Positions 2,026 to 58,766 of a DNA stretch of 64,000 nucleotides are shown piece by piece. Every line of letters starts with the position of its first letter. Position 1 is the stretch's first letter. Under the pieces are notes generated by a model. The model ran no database searches. It saw only the letters and a list, made by a program, of their open reading frames with translations, and was not told the DNA's origin. The stretch is from an uncultured Actinomycetes bacterium (GTDB lineage Bacteria > Actinomycetota > Acidimicrobiia > IMCC26256 > PALSA-555): the NCBI GenBank assembly GCA_963731625.1, contig CAVSWH010000023.1:17430-81429 (forward strand). Reading direction: 5' to 3'. Both the position numbers and the translations under genes were made by a program.

Positions 2026-2118
2026 GACTCGCGGTTCTGTCGAACCGCGAGAGCGCGACGACTCGCAGTTCCACAGTTCGCGAGGCAGGGTGACTCGCGA
2101 TCCCCGGAACCGCGAGTC
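2026..2118. repeat. Three tandem GACTCGCG-N11-CGCGAGTC palindromes (2026, 2060, 2092)
   Basis: Perfect copy at 2092-2118 and two degenerate copies, period about 33 bp. Confidence 0.9.
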
Positions 2119-2276
2119 AGACCACGCCCGAGGGCCGAGTGCGTCGCCTGGTGCTGACTCTGAGCGCTCCATGCTCGACCGCTCTGACGCAGGTGCCCAG
2201 CCAAGCCAACTCAGAGAGCTACGCACCGTGCCAACAGAAGGCCCGTCGGCTCGGATCTCTCGTTGGCAGTACTTCG

Positions 2277-3230
2277 CTAGCCGATAAGGGTGATCGTCAC
2301 GTCTGAAGCGACGGTGTTGACCCCCGATTCCCACCTTCCAAAAGTGTTCTTGTACTCGCCAGTCCCCGCATTGATCGGAGCAAAGACTGTCGTCGCTGCG
2401 GACGCGGGCTCGACGACATCGTTCAAGAGGAGCAGGGACCCGCCGATCGCAATCTGATTGTTGCACGTCTGCGTGTTCGCCGTCGTGAAGGTACACGCGA
2501 GGTGATCGGACGCGCTGAAGTTCGACGCGTGGTGCGCCTTCGTACCGGCGTAATACAAATCGGTCGAATCGTATGTATCTCCGGCCTTCGTCGCGTCGAC
2601 GTTGGGAAGCGGTTTACCGGCCGCACTGGTGAATAGCAGCGTCTGCTGCACTGTGTGGAATTGCAAGGTGGTGCCCGAGCTAGGTGGACCCGCCGTCGGA
2701 CCACTTGCGACGCCGGTGAGCGTGAACGTGTTGTCGGTGTCGCTGGAGTTCCCAATTGGGGTCGAGACCAGCGTCCCGCGCGCGTTCTTGTACCTGCCGG
2801 TACCGCCGTTGATGGGGATCGACGCCGTCCGGCCATTGAAGGTCAACGTGACATTGGTCGCGAGCAACATCGCCGAGCCGATCGCGTACTGCTGAGAGCA
2901 GGTCTGGCGCTCCGCGACAGTCGAGGCGACGGTGATCACGCAGGCGACGTGATCGGATGCGCTGAAACGCGGCGCGTGGCTTTGGTGCTGCCCCACATAG
3001 AGCAGGTCAGTTCCGTCGTAGCGGTCCCCGACGGGGAAGAGATCGGCGGGCGCCGCGGGCTGCCCCGTGGCAGTGGTCACCGTCAGGCTCTCCTGCACGC
3101 CAAAGAAATGCAGAATGGTGGTGCCGGTGCCGGCGGCCCTGACGGGCGAGGCCACCAGGCCAATCCCAGCGATGGTGGAAAGCCCGAGCGCCACACCACC
3201 CGCGATGAGTCGATTCCGACGAAGAGCCAC
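2277..3230 (-). CDS. Secreted protein with two dirigent/allene-oxide-cyclase-like beta-barrel repeats
   Basis: Signal peptide ending PVRA; internal duplication FSASDH.AC...C...AIG...PIN.GTG.YKN..G. Confidence 0.7.
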   Translation of the reverse strand: MALRRNRLIAGGVALGLSTIAGIGLVASPVRAAGTGTTILHFFGVQESLTVTTATGQPAAPADLFPVGDRYDGTDLLYVGQHQSHAPRFSASDHVACVITVASTVAERQTCSQQYAIGSAMLLATNVTLTFNGRTASIPINGGTGRYKNARGTLVSTPIGNSSDTDNTFTLTGVASGPTAGPPSSGTTLQFHTVQQTLLFTSAAGKPLPNVDATKAGDTYDSTDLYYAGTKAHHASNFSASDHLACTFTTANTQTCNNQIAIGGSLLLLNDVVEPASAATTVFAPINAGTGEYKNTFGRWESGVNTVASDVTITLIG

Positions 3231-3543
3231 GCTTCCTCCCAGCCCGAGTTAGCCGTGAGACCGTAGCCGACGGTGACAGCGTGCTGCTTGATCACCCGGC
3301 CGCCAGCCCTGTGCACCAGTGCATCGCCGACACGTATCGGACGCTTAGTCCCCGGCGACTCACCCGACTGGTGGCTCCAACGTCGTGCGCCAAGCGTCGC
3401 CCTCTCCGAGGGCCGCCCTCCGCCGTTCTCCTCATTCGGCGGTGCAGTGGGTTGGCGCGCTGGCCAAGAGCACCGGGACTTCGCGAGTGCTCGTCGGAGG
3501 CGGTCGCGCAGAGTCCACGTGGCGTACCAACCCCGATCGGACC

Positions 3544-3570
3544 GACTCGCGATCTCCACGATCGCGAGTC
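3544..3570. repeat. 27-bp palindrome
   Basis: gactcgcg-atctccacgat-cgcgagtc. Confidence 0.95.
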
Positions 3571-3660
3571 GTGCGTCGGACCGCGAAGGCAAGGACCGTT
3601 GCGTCAGCGCGACGAAGGCCCAGCTCCTCGGCGTCGCTCCACGTTGTTGTCGCTGTCCGG

Positions 3661-5638: not shown

Positions 5639-5879
5639 CCGGCGGTGACGCATGGCCCCTCTCACGCGACGACGTGCCAACTCGCGGCGGACCCTAGCGC
5701 GGAGGGGTGTACCGCAGCTGTGCCTGATCGACGGCACATGAGCGGCCGGTCAGGGCTGACGGAACGGACGAGGCGCACCATCGCACGTCGCCGTCACCTT
5801 GGTCCCCGGGACGGCAGCTCGAACAGGTTCGACCCGGCTCGGTTGCGTCAGGCCCGAGTCGGGTTGGAGGCTGGGTCGA

Positions 5880-6806
5880 GTGATCGCCGATCGTGTGTCT
5901 GACGTCATCGTGGTTGGAGGTGGCTTGGCGGGGGTCGGCTGCGCGCTGGAGTGCTTCGACATCCAGCTCGACACCCTGCTCGTCGAAGCGGCCCCGGTCC
6001 TCGGTGGTCAGCTGCCCGAGGTGCTGCACTCGGTGCGCAACCTGGCGGCGGCGCGCTTCGGGAGCGGCTCGGACCTCCAGCGCTCGTTGCAGGAAGCGGC
6101 CGGCATCCTCGTGGATCGCGTGCGACTCGGAGCGCCGGTCACGTCCGTCGACCTCGAGAGCCGATGGATAGAGATCGGCGGCGATCACCTACCGTTCCGA
6201 TCACTCGTCGTGGCGACGGGTACCCGGGAGCAGTACCTAGCCGCGGCCCCGGACGGCGCGTTCGGGGGCGACATCACCTACCAGCTCGAGACCGACCCAA
6301 AGCACTTCACCGGCTCGGTGGCGGCCGTGATCGGCGGGGGTGACAGTGCCGTCCTCGACGCGCTCGCCCTCGCCGCCGACGGCGCGACGGTGACGCTCAT
6401 CCACCGCTCGCCCGCGCTGCACGCCCGAGACGACGTCGTGGCGCAGCTCCACGCCGAGTCGCGGATCGACGACCTGCCCGGCTGGGAGCTGGACGCCGCC
6501 CGGGGACCCGACCGGCTCGAAGCGCTGGATCTCGTCCAGCGCGAGACCGGCGAACGGCGGACGCTGGCCGCAAACCGCCTCGTGGTGAAGATCGGGCGGA
6601 CCCCGAACACCGACTTCCTCGCCGGACAGCTCGAGCTGGACCACGCAGGGGCCGTCGTGGTCGACCGCGAGCTGCACGCCTCGCACGCCGGCGTCTTCGC
6701 GGCCGGCGACATCGTCGCCGACGCGTACCCGCGCGTCGCGGCGGCGCTCGGCCAGGGCTCGCTCGCCGCCCGGTCGGTGCTGCGCTACCTGCAGGGTCGC
6801 TCGTGA
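5880..6806 (+). CDS. Thioredoxin-reductase-like FAD/NAD(P) oxidoreductase lacking CxxC
   Basis: GGGLAG, VVATG, VIGGGDSA and GVFAAGDI motifs; the redox CxxC position reads ITYQLE. Confidence 0.85.
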   Translation: MIADRVSDVIVVGGGLAGVGCALECFDIQLDTLLVEAAPVLGGQLPEVLHSVRNLAAARFGSGSDLQRSLQEAAGILVDRVRLGAPVTSVDLESRWIEIGGDHLPFRSLVVATGTREQYLAAAPDGAFGGDITYQLETDPKHFTGSVAAVIGGGDSAVLDALALAADGATVTLIHRSPALHARDDVVAQLHAESRIDDLPGWELDAARGPDRLEALDLVQRETGERRTLAANRLVVKIGRTPNTDFLAGQLELDHAGAVVVDRELHASHAGVFAAGDIVADAYPRVAAALGQGSLAARSVLRYLQGRS

Positions 6807-7384
6807 GTGCCGGGACCGAGGGCGGCGCCTCCCAGCGGACGACCGCTCCCGCCCCTCGCGATGAGCTGCCGCCGGTCAGCGCGGCGGTCGCCGAGTTCCG
6901 CGCGTCCATGGTCGAAGCCGATCCGCGTCGACCGAACGGGCTGCTAGGAGTCCTGCACGATCTCCATCAGACGAACCTTGAGCAGTGGAGCTGGGAGGAC
7001 CGCGTGCGCGGCTCCGGCGGTGACGATTCGGCGGTCGCTGCCGCGAAGCGGGCGATCGACCGGCTCAACGCCCGCCGGCACGAGCTGGTCGAGGCGATCG
7101 ACGCGGCGATCAACGCGGCCGTCACCCAACGACCCGCTGCGACACCGTCCACCGAGAGCCCGGGCATGGCGTTCGATCGCCTCTCGGTCCTGGTGATCCG
7201 CATCCACCACACCGAGGCCGCCGCCGCCCGGGGCCCCGACGCCGCTGGGCTGCGCGCGCGCCTGCCAGTTCTCGAGACACAGGTGGCGGTGCTCGAGGAG
7301 GCACTCGACGCCCTCCTGAGCGAGATCCGGGCCGGGACGCGACGCTTCCTGCCCCACCGGAGCCTGAAGCTGTACAGGCCGTAG
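6803..7384 (+). CDS. DUF4254-like helical protein
   Basis: N..QW..ED..R, KR.IDRLN..R..LVE.ID, TESPG...DRLSVL and KLY motifs; GTGA overlap with the upstream gene. Confidence 0.8.
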   Translation: MSAGTEGGASQRTTAPAPRDELPPVSAAVAEFRASMVEADPRRPNGLLGVLHDLHQTNLEQWSWEDRVRGSGGDDSAVAAAKRAIDRLNARRHELVEAIDAAINAAVTQRPAATPSTESPGMAFDRLSVLVIRIHHTEAAAARGPDAAGLRARLPVLETQVAVLEEALDALLSEIRAGTRRFLPHRSLKLYRP

Positions 7385-7400
7385 CGCCCCGACCCGGGCG

Positions 7401-8525
7401 TTACGCGTGCTCGAGCGCGAGCTGGCTGAGCGTGGCCATCGGGATGGCGCAGAGCTCGTAGCCGGCGCGGTTGAAGCCGTAGAGGACGTGGTCGTCGACC
7501 GCCGCGGCGTGGGCGATCCCGAGCGGCTGCGACGCGAGCGCCGTCGTCCGCGCGAGGAAGCCTCCGTCGTGTGTGCTGTGCAGCGTCAGCGCGCCGGTCC
7601 GCTCGACTCCGCAGACGAGATCGGGTGTGATCACGACGGCGGCGCCGCCGGTGCCCCAGGCGAGGTCGTCGAAGCGACCCTCGACGACGCGGCGCCCGTC
7701 CCGTGGGTCGAGGCCGGCGAAACCCCCACCATGTAGCTGGTCCCAGTCGTAGTCGTCGACGCCGTCGGCTGGCTCGCTGCCCGCCGCCCACAGCAGCTGG
7801 CCGTCCCAGAGGAGCGTTGCCGGCTGGAAGCCAACGGTCACCTCCCAGATCGGCGTGTCGAGCGACCTGGCCCCGATCGGGAAGAGCCCGACCCGGCGGA
7901 CCGCGCCGACGGCCACGCCCGGACCGCCGGGCGTCGACACGGCCTCCAGCGCGGTGACCACGTCCCAGTCCTCGAGGCCGACGTCGACGTCGACGTCCGG
8001 TCCCGGGTCGGTCGTCAGCGGGCCGGAGACGATCACGCCGCCTGCCGCCTCGCGGCGGGGACGCGACCCGACGAGTCGATCGTCGACGGCGACGGTGCGT
8101 TCGACGTCGTCGGCGAATCGCGACGTCCACGACGGTGCAAGCGATGTGACGGTCCCCGAGCCCGCGAGGTCGGCGGCCCGAAACGCGCGGAGCTGCCCGA
8201 GATGGTTCAAGACGACCACGACGGCGGGGCCACGGATCTCGAGGATGGCGTGGACGTCGAGGTCGTACTGGGAGAGCTCGTCGTCGTCGGGGTAGCTCGT
8301 CTGGTCGAAGACCGCCTCGGGCTGGAACGAACGCGACGCGAAGACGACGTTGCGACCGAGGTTGTTCCAGGCGCACTGACGTCCCACCGCCACGACCCGC
8401 CCGATCCCTGCCGGTTGGGAGTTCTCGACCCGACTCTCAGGGGAGGAGCCGAACACGACGGCGGGCGCGCCGGGCGGGGCGCGCCCGCCCCGCGACACGA
8501 CGCCTGGCTCGCCGGCTTCGGGCAT
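7401..8525 (-). CDS. Hypothetical beta-propeller-like protein
   Basis: Beta-rich ORF coupled to the GT9 gene by a TGATG overlap at 8523-8527. Confidence 0.65.
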   Translation of the reverse strand: MPEAGEPGVVSRGGRAPPGAPAVVFGSSPESRVENSQPAGIGRVVAVGRQCAWNNLGRNVVFASRSFQPEAVFDQTSYPDDDELSQYDLDVHAILEIRGPAVVVVLNHLGQLRAFRAADLAGSGTVTSLAPSWTSRFADDVERTVAVDDRLVGSRPRREAAGGVIVSGPLTTDPGPDVDVDVGLEDWDVVTALEAVSTPGGPGVAVGAVRRVGLFPIGARSLDTPIWEVTVGFQPATLLWDGQLLWAAGSEPADGVDDYDWDQLHGGGFAGLDPRDGRRVVEGRFDDLAWGTGGAAVVITPDLVCGVERTGALTLHSTHDGGFLARTTALASQPLGIAHAAAVDDHVLYGFNRAGYELCAIPMATLSQLALEHA

Positions 8526-9433
8526 CACCGCAGCTCCTCGAGCGCGGCGACGACCCGTTCGGGCGTGATCGAGTCCAGGCACGGGGTGCCCAACGGACAC
8601 GTCCGGACCGGCGGGCGAAATCCCCCCAGGCGAACGGACGCGTTGTACGCCAGGTCTCGCTCCCGTTCGAGGCAGAGGTCCGCGCAGGCATTCCCGACGA
8701 CGACGCGGGTGTGGGACCACGGGCGGAAGTACACGGGGCGGTCACGACACAGCATCACGGTCGGCGTGCCCTGCTGCACCGCGATGTGCGTCAGGCCCGT
8801 GTCGATGCCGACCACCGCTCGACAGCTGCTCAAGAGATCGACCGTCGCCCCGGGTGTCGGCGCCACGATCTCGACGATGCCCAGGTCGCGCAGTGCCGAG
8901 TTCGCCGTGGTGCGGACGACGGCCCGGACGTCAGATCCGGACTCGCGCGCCCACTCGGCCACCGGCGCCCACCGCTCCGCCGCCCAGTGCTTGGTCGGGC
9001 CGTCGCTCTCGGTGACGAGCAGCACCATGTGGCGGAGGTCCGAGCGACGAGACGCCCGCAGGGGAACCGGGCGGGAGAAGTCGGCGTCGATGCCGAAGTC
9101 GACGCAGATTCGGCTCAGGATGTCGTTGATCAAGATCGGCCCGTAGACGGCGTCGAACTCGTGCGATCCCCACCAGTAGTCGCGTTGCAGCGGGTGGTCA
9201 CGCAGGTTGATGAACCGGCCGCCGCAGCGAGCGGGGTCGAACGAGGCCTCGTCGATCGAGCCCGCGAGCCCGTCGATGCGCTCGGCCAACGCGGCCTGCG
9301 CGGATGATCGTGCGACCAGCCAGGTCTCGTGGGCGCCGTCTCGGTTCTCGGCCACGAGCGCCTGGACGGCCGGCAACGAGACGACGAGGTCGCCGAGCCC
9401 CAGCGAGATCGGTGCCACGTAGACACGGCTCAT
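8525..9433 (-). CDS. Glycosyltransferase family 9 (ADP-heptose transferase-like)
   Basis: LGLGDLVVSLPAVQAL N-terminus, K.W..ERW, and VGIDTGLTHIA...GTPTV motifs. Confidence 0.88.
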   Translation of the reverse strand: MSRVYVAPISLGLGDLVVSLPAVQALVAENRDGAHETWLVARSSAQAALAERIDGLAGSIDEASFDPARCGGRFINLRDHPLQRDYWWGSHEFDAVYGPILINDILSRICVDFGIDADFSRPVPLRASRRSDLRHMVLLVTESDGPTKHWAAERWAPVAEWARESGSDVRAVVRTTANSALRDLGIVEIVAPTPGATVDLLSSCRAVVGIDTGLTHIAVQQGTPTVMLCRDRPVYFRPWSHTRVVVGNACADLCLERERDLAYNASVRLGGFRPPVRTCPLGTPCLDSITPERVVAALEELR

Positions 9434-9448
9434 CAGCGAGACCCTGCT

Positions 9449-10120
9449 TCACGCGGTGGCGTAGGCGGTGACGTCCTCGATCGAGAGGTCCGAGAAGGCG
9501 CGGCGTCGCTCGGCGCATTTGTTGCAGCGGCCGCAGTGCTGCTCGCCCTCGGGGTGGATGCACGAGAACGTGTGCTGCAGCGGAAGATCTCGACCCAGGT
9601 CCAGCACATCGGCCTTGGTCAGCTCGGAGAACGGCGTCACGATCTCGAACGGCCAGTCCATGCCCGTCTGCACGACCGACCCCAGCCCGGCGAAGAACGT
9701 CGGGCTGCTGTCGCTGAACGGGTTGCCTTTCAGGGTGCCGAGGGCGACCGTCGAGATGTCGTGGAGCGCGCACCACACCGCAGCCTTGGCGACGAGAAGG
9801 AGGTTCCGGCCGGGAAGGTAGACCGCCTCGTCGGGCGAGTCGGCGTCCGGGACGTCCGTGGCCGAGACGCTCCAGTGCGCTCCATAGACGTCGGCGATCG
9901 GGAAGTCGAGCGTGACCAGTCCGCGGGCGGGCAGCGTCTCCAGGAACCGGCGCAGATGGGTCTCCTCGACCGCCTCCCAGCTCAGCCCGAACCGGATGTA
10001 GATGGGTTGGACCGCCCCTTCGTGTCGGAGGAGCTCGGCGACCAGGATGGCGCTATCGAGTCCACCGCTCGCCAGCACCGCGACGGTCCCGCGGTCAGTC
10101 GGCTGGCCGCCCGTGTTCAA
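9449..10120 (-). CDS. queC: 7-cyano-7-deazaguanine synthase
   Basis: SGGLDS PP-loop, YLPGRN, and TFSC..P...HCGRCNKC..R zinc site. Confidence 0.9.
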   Translation of the reverse strand: MNTGGQPTDRGTVAVLASGGLDSAILVAELLRHEGAVQPIYIRFGLSWEAVEETHLRRFLETLPARGLVTLDFPIADVYGAHWSVSATDVPDADSPDEAVYLPGRNLLLVAKAAVWCALHDISTVALGTLKGNPFSDSSPTFFAGLGSVVQTGMDWPFEIVTPFSELTKADVLDLGRDLPLQHTFSCIHPEGEQHCGRCNKCAERRRAFSDLSIEDVTAYATA

Positions 10121-10476
10121 CGCTCACCGCGATACACGCACCCCGACGTGCACGTCTCGCGAACCACCACCTGGGAGAGATCGGGGAGCGTGTCCACCAA
10201 CTCGTCCCAGACCCACTGCGCCAGGATCTCGCTGGTGGGGTTCTCAAGCCCGTCGATCTCGTTGAGGTAGTAGTGGTCGAGGCGCGCGAGCACCGGCGCC
10301 ATCGCGCAGCTGATCTCCGCGAAGTCGCGGACCCAGCCAGCCTCCGCCTGGACCGGGGCGGTGACGTGAACGCCCAATCGAAAGGAGTGCCCGTGGAGGC
10401 GGGCGCACTTGTGGCCGGGTGGCACGTTCGGGAGCCGATGCGCCGCCTCAAAGCTGAACTCCTTGAAGATCTCCAT
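10117..10476 (-). CDS. queD: 6-carboxy-5,6,7,8-tetrahydropterin synthase
   Basis: FEAAHRLP, KCARLHGHS, LDHYYLN, LENPTSE and RETCTSGC motifs. Confidence 0.95.
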   Translation of the reverse strand: MEIFKEFSFEAAHRLPNVPPGHKCARLHGHSFRLGVHVTAPVQAEAGWVRDFAEISCAMAPVLARLDHYYLNEIDGLENPTSEILAQWVWDELVDTLPDLSQVVVRETCTSGCVYRGER

Positions 10477-10644
10477 CAGCCCAACTCCCGAGGCGGTGGT
10501 CGTCGTGGGCGGCGCGACCCGAGCGCGCCGGCAACACGGTCCTGTGCGGCAAGCATCCGCTCCCAGACCTTACGGGGAGCCCGGCCGCGGTGCACTCCAC
10601 AGCCGCGTGGCGGCACGAAGGCCTCGGAACCGTAGCGTTCCAGC

Positions 10645-11448
10645 ATGCAGATCGACGTGCTCCTGGACCCGTTCGGCACACGCTGGTCCGAGCTCCGCGA
10701 CACGGCCCGTGCTGCGGCCGAGGCGGGGTTCGCGGGCGTCTGGACCTGGGATCACCTGGACGGCCGCGTGTACGACGCGCCGGACGTGCTCGAGTGCTGG
10801 ACCGTGCTGACCGCGCTCGCCGTCGCCGTCCCGAACGTGATGATCGGACCGCTCGTCCTCAACGTCGCCAATCGCCGTCCCGGCGTGCTCGCCGTCATGG
10901 CGGCCACGCTCCAGGACGTCTCGAGTGGCCGACTCCTGCTCGGGCTCGGGGCGGGCGGTGGCCCGGACACGCCCTACCAACGTGAGCAAGAGGCGACCGG
11001 CGGCACGGTGGCGGCCGACCCCGCCCGCCGAGCGCAGATCGAGACGTGCGTCGAGCAGGTTCGGCACCTGTGGCGATCTCCCGGATTCCTGGAGCCCGAC
11101 CCCGCGCCGCCATTCGTGATCGGCGCGTTCGGTCCGAAGATGGCGGAGCTCGCGGGACGGGTCGGCGACGGGATCAACACGCGAGCTGCCGACCCTCGTC
11201 TGGAGGAGATCGTGACCATTGCCCGCGTCGCCCACGAGCGGGCCGGTCGGGATCCTGCTCACTTCTTGGTCACCGTGTTCACCGCGCTGGATGAATCGTG
11301 GCTGACGATCGACTCGGAGCGCCGGAAGCATCTGGACGCGCTCGGCGTGAACCGCCTGATCCTGTACGTGCGCCCGGCGGACGACCGGGCTCGGATCGCC
11401 GCCGCTGGACGGATGGCCACGCACGTTGGCGGGTCGGAACGCGACTGA
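10645..11448 (+). CDS. LLM-class (luciferase-like) flavin/F420-dependent oxidoreductase
   Basis: GFAGVWTWDH, R.PGVLA.MAATL..VSSGRLLLGLGAG motifs. Confidence 0.9.
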   Translation: MQIDVLLDPFGTRWSELRDTARAAAEAGFAGVWTWDHLDGRVYDAPDVLECWTVLTALAVAVPNVMIGPLVLNVANRRPGVLAVMAATLQDVSSGRLLLGLGAGGGPDTPYQREQEATGGTVAADPARRAQIETCVEQVRHLWRSPGFLEPDPAPPFVIGAFGPKMAELAGRVGDGINTRAADPRLEEIVTIARVAHERAGRDPAHFLVTVFTALDESWLTIDSERRKHLDALGVNRLILYVRPADDRARIAAAGRMATHVGGSERD

Positions 11449-11544
11449 CAAGGGTCCGGTCGGAGCGTCGAGCCCATTGCGAGGAGTTGTGCGCGTCGGA
11501 GTCTTCCAACGTCGACGCGGAGCCGGCGCCTAGGTTGGTCGTCG

Positions 11545-13077: not shown

Positions 13078-13103
13078 GACTCGCGCCCCGGTAACCGCGA
13101 GTC
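13078..13103. repeat. Palindrome (10-bp spacer)
   Basis: gactcgcg-ccccggtaac-cgcgagtc between convergent genes. Confidence 0.9.
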
Positions 13104-13741: not shown

Positions 13742-13768
13742 GCCCCGCCGTTCCCTGGACCGCGAGTC
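13742..13768. repeat. Degenerate palindrome (right arm intact)
   Basis: gccccgcc-gttccctggac-cgcgagtc. Confidence 0.65.
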
Positions 13769-13855
13769 GTACCGTCGTCGCCTCGTCACGACCGGGACTG
13801 TCCGATTGGGGGCTCGGGCTCGGCGTCGCGCGCGCGCGTTGTCGTCTTCAGATGT

Positions 13856-14821
13856 TCACGAGGCCCGAAGGGCGGGGAGGAGTTCACTTGCGGCCCAGGC
13901 GATGAACTGCTCCTGGGTGTCGGCGCCCACTTGAACCAGCGCGATGTGGGTGAAGCCGGCGGTCTCGAATTCGCGAACGCCCACGACGTGCCGCTCGACA
14001 TCGGGACCGCAGGGCATCTGCGCGGACACGTCCTCCTCGCGCACCGGGTGTGATGCCTCATCGAATGAGGCCGGGAGAGGAAGCTCGGCGTTCACCCGCC
14101 ACCCTGCGGTGAACCAACGGAACTGGTCCATCGCCCGTGTCACCGCGATCTGCGGATCGGGATCGTACGAGACCGCGATCTGTCCGATCCTCGGCTTGCC
14201 GGAGCCCCCCGCGCTGTCGAACGTCTCGCCGAGCTCGGCCTTGGGCTGCACGGCGATCATGACGTCGGCGAGACGCCCCGCGAGGCGACAGCTCGCAGCT
14301 CCTGACACTGCGATGCCGATCGGGGGCGCGGTGTCGGGAAGATCCCAGATCTTCGCGGACTCGACATCGAAATGCTTGCCCCGGTAGGTCACCGTCCCTC
14401 CAGCCCAGAGCGCTCGGATGATCTCCACGGCCTCGGCGAGCATCTCATGACGCACGCCGGCGATGGGCCAGTTGCCGCCGACGATGTGCTCGTTCAGGTT
14501 CTCACCCGCGCCCAGCCCGAGCGTGAACCGTCCGTCGCTCAGGAGCTGCATGGTGGCGGCCTTCTGTGCGACGACGGCTGGGTGATATCGCCGGATCGGG
14601 CAGGTGACGTACGTCATCAATGGAATGTGGTCGGTCGCCTGAGCCGCTGCGCCAAGCACACTCCAGGCGTACGGGGAATGCCCTTGCGTATCCAGCCAGG
14701 GGAAATAGTGGTCGCTGATGACCGCAAAATCGAACCCGGCTTCCTCGGCGAGGGCGACATCTCGCACGAGCTGCTTCGGGCCCGCTTGTTCACACATCAT
14801 CGTGTAGCCGATCAGCGTCAT
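13856..14821 (-). CDS. F420-dependent LLM oxidoreductase (G6PD-like, TIGR03557 type)
   Basis: GYTMMCEQ.GP, SDHYFPW, QGHSPYAWSVLGA and GAGENLNEH motifs. Confidence 0.9.
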   Translation of the reverse strand: MTLIGYTMMCEQAGPKQLVRDVALAEEAGFDFAVISDHYFPWLDTQGHSPYAWSVLGAAAQATDHIPLMTYVTCPIRRYHPAVVAQKAATMQLLSDGRFTLGLGAGENLNEHIVGGNWPIAGVRHEMLAEAVEIIRALWAGGTVTYRGKHFDVESAKIWDLPDTAPPIGIAVSGAASCRLAGRLADVMIAVQPKAELGETFDSAGGSGKPRIGQIAVSYDPDPQIAVTRAMDQFRWFTAGWRVNAELPLPASFDEASHPVREEDVSAQMPCGPDVERHVVGVREFETAGFTHIALVQVGADTQEQFIAWAASELLPALRAS

Positions 14822-15699
14822 GACGTTCCTTTCTGCTCCTCCAACGCGCGCATGACGGCAGTCAGGTCCAAGTCGCCAAGTCCTTGATCGACCGCCCCTT
14901 GCCATTCATCGGCAAGGCAGGCAAGGGCAGCCAGCTCGCCGGCCGCTTCACGCGCGAGGCGGATGTCCTTGAGGGCGAGCGAGAGGGCGAACTGCGGCGA
15001 GAAGTCGTCGTTAGCGATCCGTTGCAGCTTGCTTGCCTGCCACGGCGAGATCAGCGGTCCTTCCGCGATCGCCTCCGCCACGGTTCCAGTGGTCAGCCCA
15101 AGCCGATGAGCAAGCGCTACGGACGCGGCAATGGCCTCGTTGCCGAACGCGAGCCAGGTGTTGTTGACGAGCTTGAGCCGACTGCCCGCGCCGACTGCTC
15201 CGACCCAGATCGTGCGCTGCCCGAGGGCGTCGAAGAGGGGCTGAAGGCGGGGGCGGGCGTCGTCCGGGCCCGAGGCAAAGATCGTCAGCGCACCTTGCTC
15301 GGCGGGGTCCTTGCTCCCCGACACGGGCGCGTCGACGAGCAAGACGTCACGGCGCTCTGCTTCGACCATCGCGGCAATGCGCTCGATGCCGGCCACACCG
15401 ATCGTGCTCATCTGCGCCCAGATCGTGCCCGGCGCGAGCGCAGCGAGCATCCCTTGATCGTGAGCGATCGAGGCGACGGCGGACGCGTCGGTCACCATCG
15501 TCACGACGATGTCGGCCCGCCGTGCTGCGTCTGCGGCGCTGTCTGCGACGACCGCACCACGTGCGGCGAGGTCTCGAGTCGCCTCCGGTCGGCGGTTCCA
15601 AACGATCGTGGGGAGCCCCGCGCGCAAGGCGCTGCTGGCCATGCCGTGGCCCATGGCGCCGATTCCCAGCACCGCGACCGACTCCTGCGCCGCTGCCAT
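14818..15699 (-). CDS. NAD(P)-dependent 3-hydroxyisobutyrate/6-phosphogluconate dehydrogenase family protein
   Basis: GIGAMG, DAPVSGS and KLVNN motifs. Confidence 0.9.
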   Translation of the reverse strand: MAAAQESVAVLGIGAMGHGMASSALRAGLPTIVWNRRPEATRDLAARGAVVADSAADAARRADIVVTMVTDASAVASIAHDQGMLAALAPGTIWAQMSTIGVAGIERIAAMVEAERRDVLLVDAPVSGSKDPAEQGALTIFASGPDDARPRLQPLFDALGQRTIWVGAVGAGSRLKLVNNTWLAFGNEAIAASVALAHRLGLTTGTVAEAIAEGPLISPWQASKLQRIANDDFSPQFALSLALKDIRLAREAAGELAALACLADEWQGAVDQGLGDLDLTAVMRALEEQKGTS

Positions 15700-43228: not shown

Positions 43229-46200
43229 TCAGTGCAGCTCTGGGCTCGCCTCGCGGATGGCGCGTGCCCTCGTGGAGACGGGCGCGTACGACACCCGGTC
43301 GGCCTCGGCGATGCTGCGGTCGAGGAGCTGACGGGCGCGGCCTCGGTCGGACGGGTCACCACGACGCAGGAGGGTCCGAGCCAGGTCGAGTCGGGTCAAC
43401 GCGAGCAACGCCGGGGCGCGCAGCCGCTCGTGGACGGCCTCGGCCTCGACGAAGTAGCGCTCCGCATCGTCGTACGCGCCGAGCGTCAGCGACAGCAGGC
43501 CGCAGTGACGCGCGACCGAGCCGAGCGTGGTCGCCATGCTGAACGACACTTGATGATGCCAGGGCCGCATCCACTCGAGCAGTACCTGGGCGGTGGGCCG
43601 CTCGTCCAGGTACTCGCAGATCTCGGCGTAGCCGGCCATGGCGATGAGCCCGTACCGGTCGTCGGACAGGCGCGGGAGGTCCGTCGGCGCAATCCGGTCG
43701 AACGTGGCGCGTGCGTCGTCGGTGCGGCCGAGCCGGCAGTACGCCATGCAGAGCACGGCCTTCACCTGCGCCATGGCATCGGGTCGGTTGCCGTAGCGCT
43801 CCCACTGGGGCAACAGCTCGTCGAGGCGACCTTGCGTCTCCCGCGCCGCGAAGATCTGAGCGGCATAGGTGCTGCGCGCTTCGGGGACACCGCTCGCGAC
43901 GCCGATCTCGAATGCCTGCGTGCCTAGCCGTTCTGCCTCGGCGAATGCCCCGGCGAGGGACGCCCGCCACGCTCGCGTGGTGAGCACCAGGTGGCGAAGG
44001 AACGGCTGTCGGACGACGTCGCTGACTTCTCTCGCGGTGGTGATCGCGGCATCGACGCCGTCGATGTCGCCGACCCCGAGGCACGCGTTCGCGCGGTAGA
44101 CCGCTGCGAACAGCGACCCGATCGGGTCGTCGAGCCGCTCGGCCAGGGCGAGCTGCTCGCCGCTGTTGGCGAGGCACTCGTCGAGCGTGTCCGGGGCGAC
44201 GATCGTGAGGAACCGCCGCGCCAGCGTGGAGAGGAGCGTCTGATCGTCGCCCGCGGCGCGGGCGATCACCAGCGCTTCGTCCGCGAGCGCTCGAGTCCGC
44301 GCGCGGTCGGGGTCGAAGGTCAGCTCAGCGGCGAGCGTGGCGAGCAAGCGAGCCTTGACGAGCGGCTGCGCACCCGCCGATGACGACAGGGCGGCCTCGA
44401 GCATCGCGACGCGCTCTCGGTCCACGAGCCCGATGACGCCTTCGTAGCCGCGGTGGTTCGCGAGCACCGCCCGGATCAACAGGTCGCTGTTTCCTTGCGT
44501 GCGGGCCGACGCGGCGGCTTCGAGGAGCGTGTCGCGATAGCCGCGACGCCCGGCTTGCCGCTGGGCGTCGCCGAGGCCGACGAGCACTTCGGTGCGCAGG
44601 GGATCGGACGAGGCGCCGCCCGCGGGGAGCCGATCGAGTGCCGCCTCGAACCACTGGACGCTGTCGTCGGGAGCGAACCGCTCGAGGGAGAGCTCACCGG
44701 CCCGGATCGCGTAGCGGATCGCCTTCTCGGGGTCGGCGTCGCCCGCCGCGAGCCACGCGCGCGCCAGGTCGTCGGCGCGGGCGTCGGGGTCGTCGGCACT
44801 GAGCTGCTCGAGGGTCCGGGCGATGCGGACGCGCCACCGGTGCTGCCGGGTTGGACCGAACTGCTCGCAGAGGCTCTGGTGCACGATCGAGTGGGTGAAC
44901 GCGAATTCGCCGAGGCGCTCGGTTGACTCGTCGACGAGCGCCGCGGTTCCGGCTGCTTCGAGGTCCTCGAGCACGTCGACCTCCGGTTGCGCGACCACGG
45001 CCGTGAGGAGGTCGAGGTCGAACTCCCGGCCGATGAGCGCAGCGACGGGCAGCAGACTCTCGACCTTTGGGCCGAGGTGGGCGACGCGGCGCTGCACCAG
45101 CTCGCGGACGGTGTCAGGCACGCCGAGCCGGGCGAGGGACACCCCGTCGTCCATATGAGCGGCGTCGCTCAGCTGCTTGGTGGTCACGAGGTGGCGCAGC
45201 ACCTCACGCGCCAGGAAGGGATTGCCGTTGGTGTCGCGGTGGATCAGCGACGCGACGCGGTCCGCCGCTGCCGGGTCGTCGCAGCGCTCTCGGGTCAGTG
45301 TGAGCACCGCGTCTCGATCGAGCCCGTGCAGGTGGATGCGTTCGCTGACGGTGGGGCTGAGGTCGGAGACGAGCCGAGCGAGCGGGTCGTCGGGCCCGAT
45401 GTCGGTGTCGCGGTAAGTCGCCAGCACGAGGATCGGGTGGGGACGCGCCGTCGTGAAGAGGTAGCGAAGGAGCTGGATCGTCTGGCTGTCCGCCCAGTGC
45501 AGATCTTCCAGCAGCAGCACCAGCGGCTGGTCGTCCGCCTCGAGCCCCAAGAGATGGGCCACGGCACCGAACAGGAGGTACGGATCGGTCCCGGAGCTCA
45601 CGGCGACCGCCTCGGGGGCGATGCCCGTGCGCCGTGCCAGGTCAGGCACGAGGCGCGCGAGCTGTGCTCCGTGGTTCGCCACGTGCACGGCCAGCGCGTC
45701 GGTCGGGAGGTGGTCGATGAGCGCGCCGAGCGCCCGGACGAATGGCTGGTACGCGATGCCGATCGCGTCGTCGGCTTGGCCGTACGCGACGGAGGCGCCT
45801 CGACCGTGGAGCCGGCGGGCGGCACCGGCGACGAGCGTCGTCTTGCCGATGCCGGGGCTGCCGACCACGAACACGGCGTGGGGGACACCGTCGGTGCGAG
45901 TTCGCTCGTACGCGTCCCCGATCGCGTCGAGCTCGCGGTCGCGGCCCAGCATCGGGTCGCTCGGCGCCTCCACGGCCGGCGGGAGCGGCAGCACGCCGCC
46001 GCCACCAACCGCGCGCTCCGGGGCGACGCCGAGCAGCCCGGAGCCGACGACGGCGAAGATGCGCTCTGGCCGGCCGAGTCCGGCGAGCTTGCGCGTGCCG
46101 AGCTCGACGAACGAGACGCTGCTGGTCAGCTGTCCCTCCACCAGCTCTGCGGTTGTCTGGCTGACGAGCACCTGGTTGCCGAGCGCGAGGCCCCGGATCC

Positions 46201-46597
46201 GCGCGGCACGGTTGACGGTCGACCCGTAGTAGTCCAATTCTCGGGGGATGGCCTCACCGGTGTGGATCCCGGCGCGGACGAGGATGCGCGCACCCGTGGG
46301 CCACGGCTCGTGGGTCAGCGCACGTTGGAGCTCCACGCTGGCGGCGACGGCGTCGACCGCCGACCCGAAGACGGAGAAGCTGCTGTCGCCTTCGCCGCGT
46401 GGGCGGATCCGCTCGCCGCGGTGCTGTCCCACGATGTCGTCCACGAGTTCGTCGTGGCGACGCAGTGCACGCTCCATCGCCTCGGGTGCGGTGTCCCAGA
46501 GTGCGGTGGAGCCGACGATGTCGGTGAGCATGAAGCTGAGGATCTGGGTGCCCACCGCGTCGTCGCTCGGGGCCGGGCCGGGGTGTGTCGCGGTCAC
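43229..46597 (-). CDS. Class III adenylate/guanylate cyclase - STAND AAA ATPase - TPR protein
   Basis: TDIVGST, GEGDS, R.GIHTGE and VNRAAR cyclase motifs; GSPGIGKT Walker A, LLLEDLHWAD, GNPF; helical C-terminus. Confidence 0.92.
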   Translation of the reverse strand: MTATHPGPAPSDDAVGTQILSFMLTDIVGSTALWDTAPEAMERALRRHDELVDDIVGQHRGERIRPRGEGDSSFSVFGSAVDAVAASVELQRALTHEPWPTGARILVRAGIHTGEAIPRELDYYGSTVNRAARIRGLALGNQVLVSQTTAELVEGQLTSSVSFVELGTRKLAGLGRPERIFAVVGSGLLGVAPERAVGGGGVLPLPPAVEAPSDPMLGRDRELDAIGDAYERTRTDGVPHAVFVVGSPGIGKTTLVAGAARRLHGRGASVAYGQADDAIGIAYQPFVRALGALIDHLPTDALAVHVANHGAQLARLVPDLARRTGIAPEAVAVSSGTDPYLLFGAVAHLLGLEADDQPLVLLLEDLHWADSQTIQLLRYLFTTARPHPILVLATYRDTDIGPDDPLARLVSDLSPTVSERIHLHGLDRDAVLTLTRERCDDPAAADRVASLIHRDTNGNPFLAREVLRHLVTTKQLSDAAHMDDGVSLARLGVPDTVRELVQRRVAHLGPKVESLLPVAALIGREFDLDLLTAVVAQPEVDVLEDLEAAGTAALVDESTERLGEFAFTHSIVHQSLCEQFGPTRQHRWRVRIARTLEQLSADDPDARADDLARAWLAAGDADPEKAIRYAIRAGELSLERFAPDDSVQWFEAALDRLPAGGASSDPLRTEVLVGLGDAQRQAGRRGYRDTLLEAAASARTQGNSDLLIRAVLANHRGYEGVIGLVDRERVAMLEAALSSSAGAQPLVKARLLATLAAELTFDPDRARTRALADEALVIARAAGDDQTLLSTLARRFLTIVAPDTLDECLANSGEQLALAERLDDPIGSLFAAVYRANACLGVGDIDGVDAAITTAREVSDVVRQPFLRHLVLTTRAWRASLAGAFAEAERLGTQAFEIGVASGVPEARSTYAAQIFAARETQGRLDELLPQWERYGNRPDAMAQVKAVLCMAYCRLGRTDDARATFDRIAPTDLPRLSDDRYGLIAMAGYAEICEYLDERPTAQVLLEWMRPWHHQVSFSMATTLGSVARHCGLLSLTLGAYDDAERYFVEAEAVHERLRAPALLALTRLDLARTLLRRGDPSDRGRARQLLDRSIAEADRVSYAPVSTRARAIREASPELH

Positions 46598-47581: not shown

Positions 47582-47608
47582 GACTCGCGATTCGGTAGAC
47601 CGCGAGTC
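47582..47608. repeat. 27-bp palindrome
   Basis: gactcgcg-attcggtagac-cgcgagtc. Confidence 0.95.
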
Positions 47609-51127: not shown

Positions 51128-51154
51128 GACTCGCGGTCTCCGACACCGCGAGTC
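51128..51154. repeat. 27-bp palindrome
   Basis: gactcgcg-gtctccgacac-cgcgagtc. Confidence 0.95.
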
Positions 51155-52271: not shown

Positions 52272-52455
52272 CGTACGCCTCCGCCGCTCTGGTCGGTGAC
52301 CAGATGGCGACACGATAATGGCCGCGCCGACGGCAGGTCGGCTTCACTGGAGCCCGCTCGGGGGTACAAACGTTCCGATTGGGATCCCGGCGAGGGGACT
52401 CCCAGTCGCCGAGACCTCGGGTCCGGCCGGCGTACCCGGCGGCGCGCGGTTCCCG

Positions 52456-52843: not shown

Positions 52844-52870
52844 GACTCGCGATCCGAGAGATCGCGAGTC
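52844..52870. repeat. 27-bp palindrome
   Basis: gactcgcg-atccgagagat-cgcgagtc. Confidence 0.95.
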
Positions 52871-56656: not shown

Positions 56657-56862
56657 GTCCGAATCACCAGTTCGAGGCGTCCGCGACCCCAGTTCGGGTC
56701 CCCTGGGGCTATCGGCACGCGAGCCCAGCCGGCTGAGGCGTTTGTCCCGCGCGCCACGACCGGTGCGGAGGCGTGGACCGACGACGCCGACCCGGCCAGC
56801 TGGGCGCGGTGGTCCAGACGACTACGGTCGGCATCCCGGAGCTGGTGTGGGGAGTGGCGAGC

Positions 56863-57318
56863 ATGTTCAAGACGATCGTCGTGGGAACGGATGGATCGGA
56901 CACCGCCGCGAAGGCAGTGCAGGTCGCGGCCGAGCTTGCGGGAGCGTCCACGGACGGCGCGCTGCACATCGTGAGCGTCGGGAAGACCGTCCCGCACGCG
57001 GCGGTCGCGATGGGGGAGACCGCGACTGCCGGCGCCGGCATCGCGCGCGCGCAGATAGAGGAGGACAGCACGAAGGACCTGCAAGAGCTCCTCAGCCGAG
57101 CCGCCGCGTCGGTCGAGGGGGTGGCGCCGACCGTCGAGACGTACCCACGGCTCGGCAACCCGGCCGAGGTGCTCTGCCAGCTCGGCGAGCAGATCCGCGC
57201 CGACCTCATCGTGGTCGGGAATCAGGGGATGCAGGGTGGCCGGCGGTTCCTCGGCAGCGTGCCGAACTCCGTGTCGCACCACGCACCGTGCAGCGTCCTC
57301 ATCGTCAGCACGGCCTAG
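56863..57318 (+). CDS. Universal stress protein
   Basis: IVVGTDGS, G.PA..L, DLIVVG..G and LGSV...V.H.APCSVL motifs. Confidence 0.93.
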   Translation: MFKTIVVGTDGSDTAAKAVQVAAELAGASTDGALHIVSVGKTVPHAAVAMGETATAGAGIARAQIEEDSTKDLQELLSRAAASVEGVAPTVETYPRLGNPAEVLCQLGEQIRADLIVVGNQGMQGGRRFLGSVPNSVSHHAPCSVLIVSTA

Positions 57319-57499
57319 CGGCCCTCGTCCCTCTTGCTCTCTCGCCGCGGGGGTCGCGGGCAGAGGGTGGGTGGCACCGCCGGGTCGGTGCTGATCGCCG
57401 CGCCCCACGCTGAACGGGAGCGTCGAGGGGACCTCGGCCGCAGCGTGTGGTCGTTGAGTCCACCCGAGTGAGTCGAACGGCGATCGTGCGCCGCTCGAC

Positions 57500-58582
57500 T
57501 CAGGCGACCTGTCCCGAGCGACGTTGCGCGTCCGTCATGCCCGCCTGGTCGAAGACGCTCGGTGAGCCCTTCGCGATCGCTTCGTCGGACTTCGGTGGGA
57601 TGCCGAGCATCTCGCGGACCTCACCGACCGGTCGTGCCGCGAGCGGGTGATAGTCGACCTCGAGGAGGTCGTGGCCGTAGCTCTCGGCGATTACCTTGCC
57701 CCGACGGATGGCGTCGGCCAGCCGGACGTCCATGCCGTCGATCTGCAGGTGGTGCGTGTCGGTGTCGGCGTTGAACGGCCCTTGCGACTCGACGTAGCCC
57801 GTCTCGAAGAGGCCGATCATGGTGGCGAGCCACGCGAAGCCCTTGGGGTCCGGATCCGCTCGCCCCACCGTCGCGAACACCTCGAGCTCGCATTCCATGC
57901 GGGTGCCGTAGTCGGCGAGGACGTGGACGAAGTCGTGCTGCGCGAGGTACGGCGATGCGGCGCCGGGGCTGCCCGGGAGCTGGAATCCCCGCGCCCGGTA
58001 CATCGTCGACACCGATCGTCCGAGGGTCCCCTCCTCGAGCGCGGCGAAGCCCTCCCATCGTGCCTCGAGCTCGGGGTCGACGAGGTCGGCGAAGGGGTCG
58101 GCGAGCGGCGCTTGGATGTGGAGGGGGACGGAGCGGGCGGCGTCCCAGCGATCCTCGAAGCCGCTGCGCCGCAGGTCGAAGGCCGCGAGGTCCAGGGTGC
58201 CACCGGCGTAGCGGTGGGCGAGCGCGACGAAGTCGTCGCTGACGCCGAGCGCCGCGGCGTACCGCGCGACGCGCTCGGCGACGTCGGTGGGGAGCGGCCG
58301 AAGGACGATCTCGGCGAGCACCATGTGATGGACGATCCGGTGCCGATACTCGAGCCCGCGGTCGCGCAAGACCGCCGCGAGCTCGTCCGGCTCGAGGGGA
58401 GCGAGCGTGTGGTAGTCGACCTCGAACCCGGTGACGGCGTGCGTGACGGCGCGCAGGATCGCGGCCTGGGCCCGCGTGATGCCCGACTCGGGCGCGACCG
58501 CCGTCGCCATCCCGCGGGCGACCGCGATGACCTCGTCCCGCGGGGGAGAGGACGAGGCCGCCGCCGCGTGTCCGCTGTCCAT
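57500..58582 (-). CDS. Coq4-like metalloprotein
   Basis: L..GTLGR, QHDFVHVLADYGT...E.EV (HDxxH plus E) motifs. Confidence 0.7.
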   Translation of the reverse strand: MDSGHAAAASSSPPRDEVIAVARGMATAVAPESGITRAQAAILRAVTHAVTGFEVDYHTLAPLEPDELAAVLRDRGLEYRHRIVHHMVLAEIVLRPLPTDVAERVARYAAALGVSDDFVALAHRYAGGTLDLAAFDLRRSGFEDRWDAARSVPLHIQAPLADPFADLVDPELEARWEGFAALEEGTLGRSVSTMYRARGFQLPGSPGAASPYLAQHDFVHVLADYGTRMECELEVFATVGRADPDPKGFAWLATMIGLFETGYVESQGPFNADTDTHHLQIDGMDVRLADAIRRGKVIAESYGHDLLEVDYHPLAARPVGEVREMLGIPPKSDEAIAKGSPSVFDQAGMTDAQRRSGQVA

Positions 58583-58739
58583 GCCCTGCGCCTCCGGATT
58601 CCCGTCGAGAGTGTACGAGCGACGCCACACGACAGTCCCCGCGTGGCGTTCCCGGGTTGACGGCGCTCCCGACAGGCTGCGCCTGCGGGCCCCGCCGTTG
58701 CCGGTGTCCGGCGAGCCGCCGGCCACGGCGCCGGCGCGC

Positions 58740-58766
58740 GACTCGTGGGTTGGTCAACCGCGAGTC
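58740..58766. repeat. Palindrome overlapping the stop codon of the MBL gene
   Basis: gactcgtg-ggttggtcaac-cgcgagtc; the stop TGA (58765-58767) begins the arm on the minus strand. Confidence 0.9.

Follow-up and report, generated by a model that had tools for sequence, protein, structure and literature searches.

The 64,000-nt stretch of DNA analysed here, referred to as the window, spans positions 17430–81429 of contig C23 in the genome assembly of an uncultured member of the Acidimicrobiia (G000; 4.0 Mb, 72% GC, 24 contigs). It carries an array of approximately 34 copies of a 27-bp palindrome, GACTCGCG-N11-CGCGAGTC, set between small and unrelated genes. From the comparisons described below it appears, with a probability that we put at about 0.6, that conservative, sequence-specific recombination takes place with these palindromes as its crossover sites, in a system which inserts, deletes, inverts and exchanges small gene cassettes and, with similar probability, that this exchange is confined to a dedicated flexible chromosomal region in one genus of uncultured Acidimicrobiia. 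As recombination junctions the sites are well supported; the enzyme and its chemistry we infer. The genomes compared include G001, the closest relative (~91% identity), G007, and G041, a single-contig closed chromosome of 3.55 Mb from the same genus. Four soil-metagenome runs of one study (X1 to X4) also contain the region of the window, with shares from 0.90 to 0.35.

The palindromic sites of the window

Thirteen perfect copies of the motif are present in the window compared to none in 100 dinucleotide shuffles, which served as the null for motif counts, and all thirteen lie where an earlier sequence-only reading of this DNA had placed them. With up to three mismatches allowed there are 30 matches (4.15 expected; largest shuffle 13), while a position weight matrix trained on the copies of G000 itself identifies 29 sites with an 11-nt spacer (N11). 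Five copies with an N10 or N12 spacer, at 2026, 13078, 25831, 26767 and 35422, bring the total to about 34, in close agreement with the figure of about 36 given before. The sites, together with two of the gene modules between them, are the following (bits are weight-matrix scores).

2026–2053: site variant, N12, two arm mismatches (C23:19455)
2060–2086: site, 25.7 bits, left member of a 32-nt doublet (weight matrix and mismatch search)
2092–2118: perfect site (pattern and weight matrix)
3544–3570: perfect site, the sole one inside a called open reading frame (ORF; doubtful 5′ extension of an NHL-repeat gene)
13078–13103: site variant, perfect arms, N10 (C23:30507)
13742–13768: degenerate site, 18.3 bits; borders on the left the module that is translocated in G001
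13769–15863, minus strand: two-gene module, luciferase-like monooxygenase and NAD-binding dehydrogenase
15864–15890: perfect site (pattern and weight matrix)
17510–17536: site, 25.1 bits (weight matrix)
18014–18040: site, one mismatch, left partner of the run X1 joint
18028–21285, minus strand: two-gene module of 3,258 bp, PPDK_N and cyclic-nucleotide (cNMP)-binding protein and a 383-aa protein without Pfam match
21272–21298: perfect site, right partner of the run X1 joint
22092–22118: site, 25.4 bits (weight matrix)
22149–22175: site, 21.0 bits (weight matrix)
22259–22285: perfect site (pattern and weight matrix)
23523–23549: site, one mismatch (mismatch search and weight matrix)
24489–24515: site, one mismatch, left member of a 42-nt doublet
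24531–24557: perfect site, right member of the 42-nt doublet
25831–25858: site variant, N12, one mismatch (C23:43260)
26691–26717: perfect site (pattern and weight matrix)
26767–26794: site variant, N12, one mismatch (C23:44196)
29125–29151: site, one mismatch (mismatch search and weight matrix)
29266–29292: perfect site (pattern and weight matrix)
32644–32670: degenerate site, 13.3 bits, left member of a 42-nt doublet
32686–32712: perfect site, its flanking blocks 25 kb apart and in opposite orientation in G041
33285–33311: site, 25.1 bits (weight matrix)
34605–34631: site, 21.0 bits (weight matrix)
35372–35398: site, one mismatch (mismatch search and weight matrix)
35422–35447: site variant, N10, two mismatches (C23:52851)
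35463–35489: degenerate site, 12.5 bits (weight matrix)
39826–39852: perfect site, with an IS110-family element directly outside one arm of its G001 ortholog
47582–47608: perfect site (pattern and weight matrix)
51128–51154: perfect site (pattern and weight matrix)
52397–52423: degenerate site, 12.2 bits (weight matrix)
52844–52870: perfect site (pattern and weight matrix)
58740–58766: site, one mismatch, the final site of the array on contig C23

The extended consensus drawn from the G000 copies is Y-GACTCGCG-R-T-Y-Y-N3-R-R-A-Y-CGCGAGTC-R, which is in keeping with that of the sequence-only reading. The near-constant spacer length described there also stands, N11 being found in 43 of the 50 perfect-arm copies of G000 and in 179 of 199 perfect-arm sites from four genomes. 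The accompanying claim that the centre varies freely does not stand in full, as the outer two positions on each side are semi-conserved and the spacer is partly constrained, even if 162 of the 179 spacers are distinct. The longest unbroken identity between two sites is approximately 10 nt, the sequence GANTC is present in both arms, and doublets occur at preferred spacings of 22, 32–36 and 41–43 nt.

Single-stranded, the sites fold to stable hairpins without bulges (−12.8 to −22.4 kcal/mol, z-scores −5.2 to −7.8). This stability, and the doublets at fixed spacings that recall paired repetitive extragenic palindromic (REP) elements, would suit the main alternative, in our estimation an unlikely one, namely that the palindrome is a hairpin repeat of the REP kind that lacks a dedicated recombinase, an extragenic structural element which might act at transcript ends, in stabilising mRNA or in replication. 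Rearrangements would then occur at fragile hairpins or cruciforms, the only sequence that the loci share, with joining left to the repair pathways of the host (template switching, recombination over short homologies, or end joining once a hairpin has been cleaved). The N10 and N12 variants, about 10% of perfect-arm sites, could be scars of such imprecise joining. What speaks against it at the level of the site is that mirror positions of the inner stem show no base-pair co-variation (positions 9/19 are GC in 39 cases, GT in 33, AT in 10 and AC in 8). The mirror pairs match what independent halves would give and the arms, which are also conserved across species, are therefore conserved as sequence and not merely as a fold, which calls for recognition by sequence. 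The maximum identity of approximately 10 nt between sites is moreover well below what RecA-type recombination needs, and the spacers have not been homogenised.

Half-sites exist in a C-type and a T-type, as given by spacer position 3 and its mirror, and genome-wide there are 29 CC, 51 CT and 4 TT sites (expected approximately 35, 38 and 10). The excess of the mixed type may hint that the two halves of a site are non-equivalent, a real polarity being inseparable here from over-fitting in the orientation model. It is also worth mentioning that G001 has four tandem sites with a 34-nt period followed by a fifth (C52:2889–3071, locus L139), nearly the same spacer being present throughout. This spacer class, which contains TGCTCAT, recurs in five perfect sites of four genomes, including C15:342900 and G041:1761222, and may represent an "empty" or founder site.

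Gene modules and distribution of the sites

Between 13 and 36 kb of the window the sites cut 13 modules of one to three unrelated genes on both strands, which bears out the bracketing of genes and gene pairs described in the sequence-only reading. The arrays of G000, G007 and G041 together comprise 212 modules with a median length of 1.6 kb (quartiles 0.9–3.1 kb). Those of G000 mostly hold one or two genes, and many modules hold two to four. Neighbouring genes face both ways. Their junctions in the C23 array are tandem in 34 cases, divergent in 20 and convergent in 20, the corresponding figures for the second array of G000, on contig C15, being 39, 11 and 11.

With genes taken from our own codon-usage calls, 82 of the 83 strong sites (at least 20 bits) are intergenic, the exception being window 3544. 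Convergent regions hold 28 of these 82, tandem regions 36 and divergent regions 18. By length, the intergenic DNA of the arrays is 34% divergent and 18.5% convergent. The sites lean towards gene 3′ ends and are not restricted to them. Both the intergenic position and this 3′ lean are also what a REP-like repeat would show.

The same setting fits an explanation to which we give little probability, in which the palindromes are protein-binding sites or terminators that travel with acquired genes in order to silence, insulate or terminate them. Homology would then stop at the sites only because neighbouring genes had arrived separately and by a different route. A dyad-symmetric site with fixed spacing would suit a dimeric binding protein, and the sites are enriched after stop codons in accessory DNA of low GC content (63–68% in site-rich stretches and 72–74% elsewhere in G000). 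In addition, the GANTC in both arms may be viewed together with a gene for a DNA methyltransferase of the beta class, of putative specificity, at the border of the G041 array. Such a role is harder to reconcile with the 18 of 82 sites in divergent regions. A U-tailed intrinsic terminator was rejected, since TTTT follows within 14 nt at only one of the 83 sites and none of the seven terminator-like matches between 13 and 33 kb is a site; a terminator lacking such a tail may still be compatible with the hairpin. The window also has no Rfam match, in line with the sites not being a known RNA family. Sites that travel with acquired genes would moreover leave unexplained the inserts with two sites opposite a single site, the chimeric spacers and the centre-to-centre joint that are described below.

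The methyltransferase in question (N6/N4, L097:2003–2908) is encoded 3 kb before the array of G041. It scores 55 bits against a cut-off of 830 for the CcrM equivalog and is not a member of that group. Its homolog in G000 (C1:425929–427338) adjoins the only IS110 copy of that genome.

Across G000 the weight matrix, at a threshold of 12 bits, detects 95 sites compared to one in the reversed sequence that served as control for genome scans, and 77 of these lie in two contig-end regions of approximately 75 kb each. Contig C23 has 40 sites, all within its first 76 kb, and begins inside a site (position 2), while nearly all of the 37 sites of C15 are found at 280–356 kb of its 366 kb. C1 (1.69 Mb) has 13, seven of them within 20 kb, and C4 has five. 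In G041 the stretch from 1.756 to 2.065 Mb contains 63 of the 65 copies. The weight matrix finds 94 sites in this 310-kb region, arranged in two sub-clusters, and none in the reversed control. The uneven clustering that the sequence-only reading made a check of its proposal is accordingly present in both genomes. It is not a feature of REP-like repeats, copies here being confined to one region while other low-GC stretches such as C15:170–210 kb and C1:920 kb are free of sites.

The gene dnaA of G041 is located at 1.193 Mb, placing the array 0.56–0.87 Mb away on a chromosome of 3.55 Mb, that is, neither at the origin nor opposite to it. This distance rules out an organiser of the origin or terminus of the parS or matS kind; GC skew is weak and does not switch at the arrays. 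A tRNA-Met gene (G041:C1:1,755,727–1,755,803; L097:5727–5803) lies approximately 200 nt before the first array site, and the 26 kb to the left of the array are collinear with G000 C15:144–170 kb, this collinearity ending exactly at the tRNA-Met. The matching point in G000 is followed by a 46-kb low-GC stretch which has no sites.

Within the genus, 10 of 11 genomes have the motif, with 3 to 90 copies at up to one mismatch. In other genera of the family and order just four of 29 genomes have a match, in each case a single one with one mismatch. A scan of bacteria and archaea with one genome per species returned 96 stretches, nearly all from uncultured Acidimicrobiia or Actinomycetota of soil and peat, besides isolated single matches in unrelated taxa. 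Its occurrence is restricted to a single genus of uncultured Acidimicrobiia. No analogous palindrome was apparent in another genus, as 46 kb beside a conserved flank gene in G019 contain neither the motif nor a recurrent palindrome arm, and an 11.9-kb contig of G009 that matches the conserved flank has neither of them. A phage or plasmid vector was rejected, the sole match among 2.9 million viral contigs lying inside a coding region and being attributable to chance. The motif is likewise present at none of 80 metagenome loci with relatives of the protein of a DUF2071 cassette (best relative 64% identical; no strain-level junctions among them), so the site belongs to the array and not to the gene, which is a further point against a binding site or terminator that travels with acquired genes. 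A literature search, which did not extend to supplementary files, returned no description of this repeat, the arm 9-mers occurring, among the matches listed, as primers or in unrelated sequence.

Homology breaks and junctions at the sites

The arrays of G000, G041 and G007 have gene-sized blocks in common with 65–96% identity, their order and orientation being scrambled and those shared between species holding one or two genes. The two blocks which meet at window 32686, for instance, are 25 kb apart and inverted in G041, where each is again found beside a site. In the contigs of G001 that were compared, homology to G000 as given by BLAST alignment blocks is interrupted at 29 of 32 site-bearing intergenic regions and at 36 of 83 site-free ones (Fisher test, odds ratio 12.6, p = 2e-6), and 24 of 108 block ends lie within 15 nt of a site compared to 5.6% for random intergenic positions. 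Of 69 sites in G001, 24 have homology to G000 on one flank only, usually ending 0–2 nt from the site, and in seven the two flanks correspond to separate sites of G000. Only two are collinear, while 36 are without a homolog on either side. Breaks in synteny, by which the sequence-only reading had proposed to judge the sites, are therefore concentrated at them.

Whole modules have also moved. The module of luciferase-like monooxygenase and dehydrogenase (window 13758–15891 with its borders, C23:31187–33320) is bounded by sites in both G000 and G001. Its neighbours in G001, where the bounding sites are C175:55350 and 57476, are different ones. C15:313301–314529 is likewise bounded by sites in both genomes and has different neighbours. 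The DUF2071 cassette is 96% identical between G000 and G041, while their other shared blocks are 65–91% identical, and homology ends at both of its bounding sites. Between G007 and locus L060 another cassette has 96.5% identity, and here too homology stops at the two bounding sites. From their sequences these two near-identical cassettes appear to be cases of recent transfer between species.

At the level of nucleotides, two inserts of G000 are particularly informative. A 5.2-kb segment (C23:8304–13489) lies between sites at 8277 and 13494, and G001 has a single site in its place which combines the spacer of the left site with the flank of the right one. Similarly, a 0.6-kb segment (C23:14412–14999) lies between sites at 14400 and 15001 and is opposed by a single site in G001, whose spacer is made of the first 5 nt of the left site and the last 6 nt of the right one, the switch itself being free of microhomology. 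G001 has another chimeric spacer at C281:2517. When 18 one-sided junctions are taken together, spacer positions in the half adjoining the homologous flank match the partner site at 0.78–0.89 (background 0.26–0.52), positions 7 and 8 match at 0.61 and 0.56, and the last three are at background. At the left end of the cassette shared by G007 and L060 no spacer letters have been kept with the flank. Homology in these alignments switches within the site, and a locus with an insert has two sites where the empty locus has one, as would be expected of crossover by site-specific recombination. Cleavage may be single and central, or it may take place at both edges of a 7-bp overlap.

These junctions also fit poorly with a REP-like repeat and joining by host repair, as the joins preserve the length of the site, inserts are flanked by two complete sites and one chimeric spacer shows no microhomology.

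A population variant offers a further junction. When contigs from the soil-metagenome runs were aligned to window 17001–37000 at a 90% threshold, one contig from run X1 (3,214 nt, depth 13) was found to follow 17906–18027 and then 21286–24343, skipping the 3,258 bp of the two-gene module at 18028–21285. The joint (18027/21286, with 3 nt ambiguous) falls in the middles of the sites at 18014–18040 and 21272–21298, and the skipped segment is also covered in the same run at a depth of approximately 8–10. Rejoining inside the spacer, which the sequence-only reading had put forward as something to look for in reads, is in this way represented by one contig of a public run; the joint is that of an assembled contig rather than of raw reads and X1 may be the source sample of the window itself. 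Other joints and loose ends of run contigs (23360 to 18870; 24134–24176) lie inside genes, probably stem from other organisms at the 90% threshold and were not used.

That the rearrangements could be artefacts of metagenome assembly, created by false joins at the repeat, is very improbable. In its favour, all of the compared genomes were assembled from metagenomes, C23 begins inside a site and the X1 joint comes from a contig. On the other hand, with each site having a spacer of its own, the identical stretches are about 8–10 nt and shorter than usual assembly word sizes, and the same pattern is seen in the single-contig G041 and in independent assemblies from other sources. Shared cassettes differ by 4–15% and cannot be the same reads.

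With crossover at the sites as the preferred reading, a mechanism may be outlined. A dimeric recombinase, encoded outside of the arrays, would bind the two like arms and cut within or at the edges of the central 7–11 bp, tolerating unlike spacers. The arms being symmetric, a circular cassette could insert in either orientation. Binding as a dimer with strand exchange at the centre would explain the fixed geometry, the unique spacers, both orientations, the two-site inserts and the chimeric spacers. The odd layout of the site (10-7-10) would fit a tyrosine recombinase better than a serine recombinase.

Candidate recombinases and known systems

Of the 65 genes called in the window, 33 were scanned with Pfam without a recombinase being found. 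Matches to PF00589, PF00239, PF01797 and PF01548 are absent from the whole window, in accordance with the statement of the sequence-only reading that none is visible. That reading had also suggested that a tyrosine recombinase or a gene of the RAYT (REP-associated tyrosine transposase)/HUH type might be flanked by the motif. In G000, G007 and G041 no tyrosine recombinase lies in or beside an array, all PF00589 matches (8, 16 and 6, respectively) being outside. The nearest, at G007:C68:211612, falls in the final 5 kb over which its contig bears sites. Y1/RAYT genes (PF01797) were detected in none of these three genomes, of which G041 is closed, while the control found the family in six of 14 reference genomes. 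This absence counts against the palindrome as a REP-like repeat, and a REP element mobilised by a RAYT was rejected on the same ground together with the regional confinement of the copies. A serine-recombinase site of the hix, gix or res type, which is of even length with a central 2-bp overlap, was rejected also, given that PF00239 is absent from G000, G001 and G041 and the site is of odd length (27).

Of recombinase genes the closed G041 has only a pair of the Xer type and one for a small tyrosine recombinase, besides two IS110 copies and two integrase remnants that are broken. The weak candidate enzymes for the system are the small Cre-like tyrosine recombinase, XerC/D and the IS110-family recombinase. 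The first of these is a protein of 282 aa in G000 (C4:474314–475159) for which the best match of solved structure is Cre, albeit weakly (E = 2e-4), and which scores far below the cut-off of every NCBIfam family. It is present in eight of 11 genomes of the same genus, and no site was seen near its gene when the sequence was read by eye. This gene was missed by the codon-usage caller and lies opposite a long spurious ORF, from which it follows that its coding signal is atypical for G000.

The IS110-family element (insertion sequence, IS) has a frameshifted gene and is located at G001:C92:23115–24727, directly outside one arm of the site orthologous to window 39826. It is 69–74% identical to the two G041 copies and absent from G000. 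IS110 relatives are known to target REPs, and the position of this element would also be in line with a REP-like nature of the sites. IS110 is found in seven of 12 genomes of the genus, these being all five with at least 38 sites and two of the seven site-poor ones, an association which proves little because a fragmented assembly loses IS elements and flexible arrays alike.

Phage-type integrases at contig ends (C4:79–1152, C20, C21 and C1:592564) were rejected as they have no intact counterpart in the closed G041. Two of them, C20:3–1562 and C21:214610–215863, are nearly identical and probably belong to an integrative element whose repetition interrupted the assembly.

A number of observations weigh against the sites being crossover points of a dedicated recombinase. 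No recombinase is tied to them, the arrays having no PF00589 match and serine recombinases being absent from G000, G001 and G041. The 282-aa enzyme is found in four other genera that lack the motif and in G011, a genome of the same genus with no sites, while IS110 copies are mostly not beside sites (none of 12 other loci, nor the single G000 copy). The spacers differ, whereas most tyrosine recombinases need identical overlap regions. The position of crossover is not uniform, some junctions being chimeric in mid-spacer and others keeping the whole spacer, or none of it, with one flank. Of the four informative junctions, three show microhomology where the switch occurs, as joining by host repair at a REP-like repeat would leave, and only at one (C316:1797) is it excluded. 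Homology is broken at 36 of 83 site-free regions too, and some indels end away from any recognisable site, such as C23:15553 to 23235 and the right end of C23:68448–74172. The enrichment at gene 3′ ends (28 of 82 convergent against 18.5% of intergenic length) fits a transcript-end element as well. Finally, all of the genomes are metagenome assemblies and all of the evidence is computational.

Among known systems, integrons have an intI gene next to the array along with attI and a promoter, and their cassettes are co-oriented. Their attC sites are imperfect palindromes of ~57–141 nt with R and L boxes and extrahelical bases. The present array is integron-like in being one chromosomal region packed with small unrelated accessory genes that are separated by a repeated palindromic recombination site, and in having cassettes which differ between close relatives and are occasionally shared across species at high identity, the site itself being lineage-specific. 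It differs in that no integrase adjoins the array or lies inside it, cassettes face both ways and many modules hold two to four genes. The site is of 27 nt, a near-perfect palindrome, and folds without the bulges of attC, no model specific to attC having been run. An integron was rejected on these grounds, with no tyrosine recombinase in the array, a site that is not attC-like and cassettes that are not co-oriented. According to the excerpted text of a survey of complete genomes, all Actinobacteria are without a complete integron (PMC4889954).

The dif modules (pdif) on plasmids and chromosomes of Acinetobacter, which are mobilised by XerC/XerD and are the subject of PMC9947245 and PMC12907356, also consist of unrelated genes bracketed by two-arm sites of ~28 bp, in varied contexts and either orientation, with the recombinase encoded elsewhere. 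An IS family is reported, in an excerpt of a further article, to insert 5 bp from pdif sites (PMC10132070), which resembles the IS110 element beside one site of G001. Sites of the pdif kind resemble the chromosomal dif; the arms here are alike and not of an XerC-type and an XerD-type. The present array is chromosomal with ~40–95 sites. The sole dif-like sequence of G000 detected by pattern search (C4:197918–197945) is presumably the chromosome dimer resolution site and has no similarity to the motif; the likeness of the motif to dif is therefore only architectural.

In its design the site recalls the dRS3 elements in the intergenic mosaic (NIME) arrays of Neisseria, which the excerpted source describes as short inverted repeats with conserved arms and a variable centre of fixed length (6-8-6), intergenic and forming strain-variable arrays (PMC1797815). 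As given there, dRS3 has been proposed as a recombinase binding site, and phages integrate at it by means of a phage-encoded transposase or recombinase. In contrast to the present sites, dRS3 flanks non-coding RS elements of 50–150 bp rather than genes and is found at many loci (PMC1797815). The two sequences are unrelated. The arms here are also longer (8–10 bp), the array is one region and no phage with the site was found among 2.9 million viral contigs.

REP elements and the bacterial interspersed mosaic elements (BIMEs) built from them are similar in being extragenic palindromes of 20–40 nt in tens to hundreds of copies, often paired, often after genes and lineage-specific. They differ in that no Y1/RAYT is present in the three genomes, copies are not dispersed and the sites themselves are rearrangement junctions. 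REP elements have a conserved tetranucleotide ahead of the hairpin, whereas the flank here is just Y/R.

The loxP site of Cre (13-8-13) likewise has identical inverted arms around a short centre without binding information. Sites of this type support insertion, excision and inversion without accessory sites, and loxP partners must share their spacer. Here, by contrast, nearly every spacer is unique, and the candidate 282-aa enzyme is not specific to motif-bearing genomes. In function the sedentary chromosomal integrons and the Acinetobacter dif modules appear to be closest, and in site design dRS3 and the loxP-type sites. The array nevertheless lacks the defining features of each known family, having neither an adjacent intI nor co-orientation, no dif likeness and no RAYT.

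Integrons and dif modules are the two known ways of keeping swappable libraries of single genes and are known mainly from Proteobacteria. The same cassette logic would here be found in uncultured and abundant Acidimicrobiia of soil and peat, with an unrelated site, free orientation and no adjacent integrase. Our evaluation of the sites as those of a capture and shuffling system independent of integrons in the Actinomycetota, with an array of up to ~95 cassettes on a 27-bp dyad-symmetric site, is tentative and falls somewhat short of even odds; its recombinase would be a new use of a small Cre-like tyrosine recombinase or a member of a family so far not associated with the exchange of cassettes, for example a domesticated one of the IS110 type. 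If true, the integron principle would have been invented a second time, independently, and in a phylum from which no complete integron is known. Should the enzyme be found, a simple recombinase with a symmetric 27-bp site and tolerance of spacer heterology would be of practical interest as a tool, and the site is a ready marker for pulling the cassette pools of this lineage from metagenomes.

Cassette contents include a luciferase-like monooxygenase, dehydrogenases, P450s, a TIR protein, PIG-L, cyclases and a STAND-like ATPase, as well as dodecin, GYD, DUF2071 and many proteins without a Pfam match. Protein families common to the arrays of three to four genomes are dodecin, PIG-L, GYD, P450, SRPBCC, cyclase, DUF2071 and small unknowns, none of these conserved proteins being recombinase-like. 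With P450s, oxidoreductases, cyclases, proteins of the TIR and STAND-like kinds and many unknowns among its cassettes, the array is probably the genus's main store of strain-level adaptive genes. In the window, the TIR-domain protein has a cassette at 21468–22025, and 43229–46597 encodes a protein of 1,122 aa with cyclase, AAA and TPR domains, which looks like a signalling or defence protein and has two copies in G001. The stretch 5800–11450 is a conserved island within the variable array, its seven genes forming a site-free block that is collinear and 91–92% identical in G001 (L095) and in a third assembly (L007).

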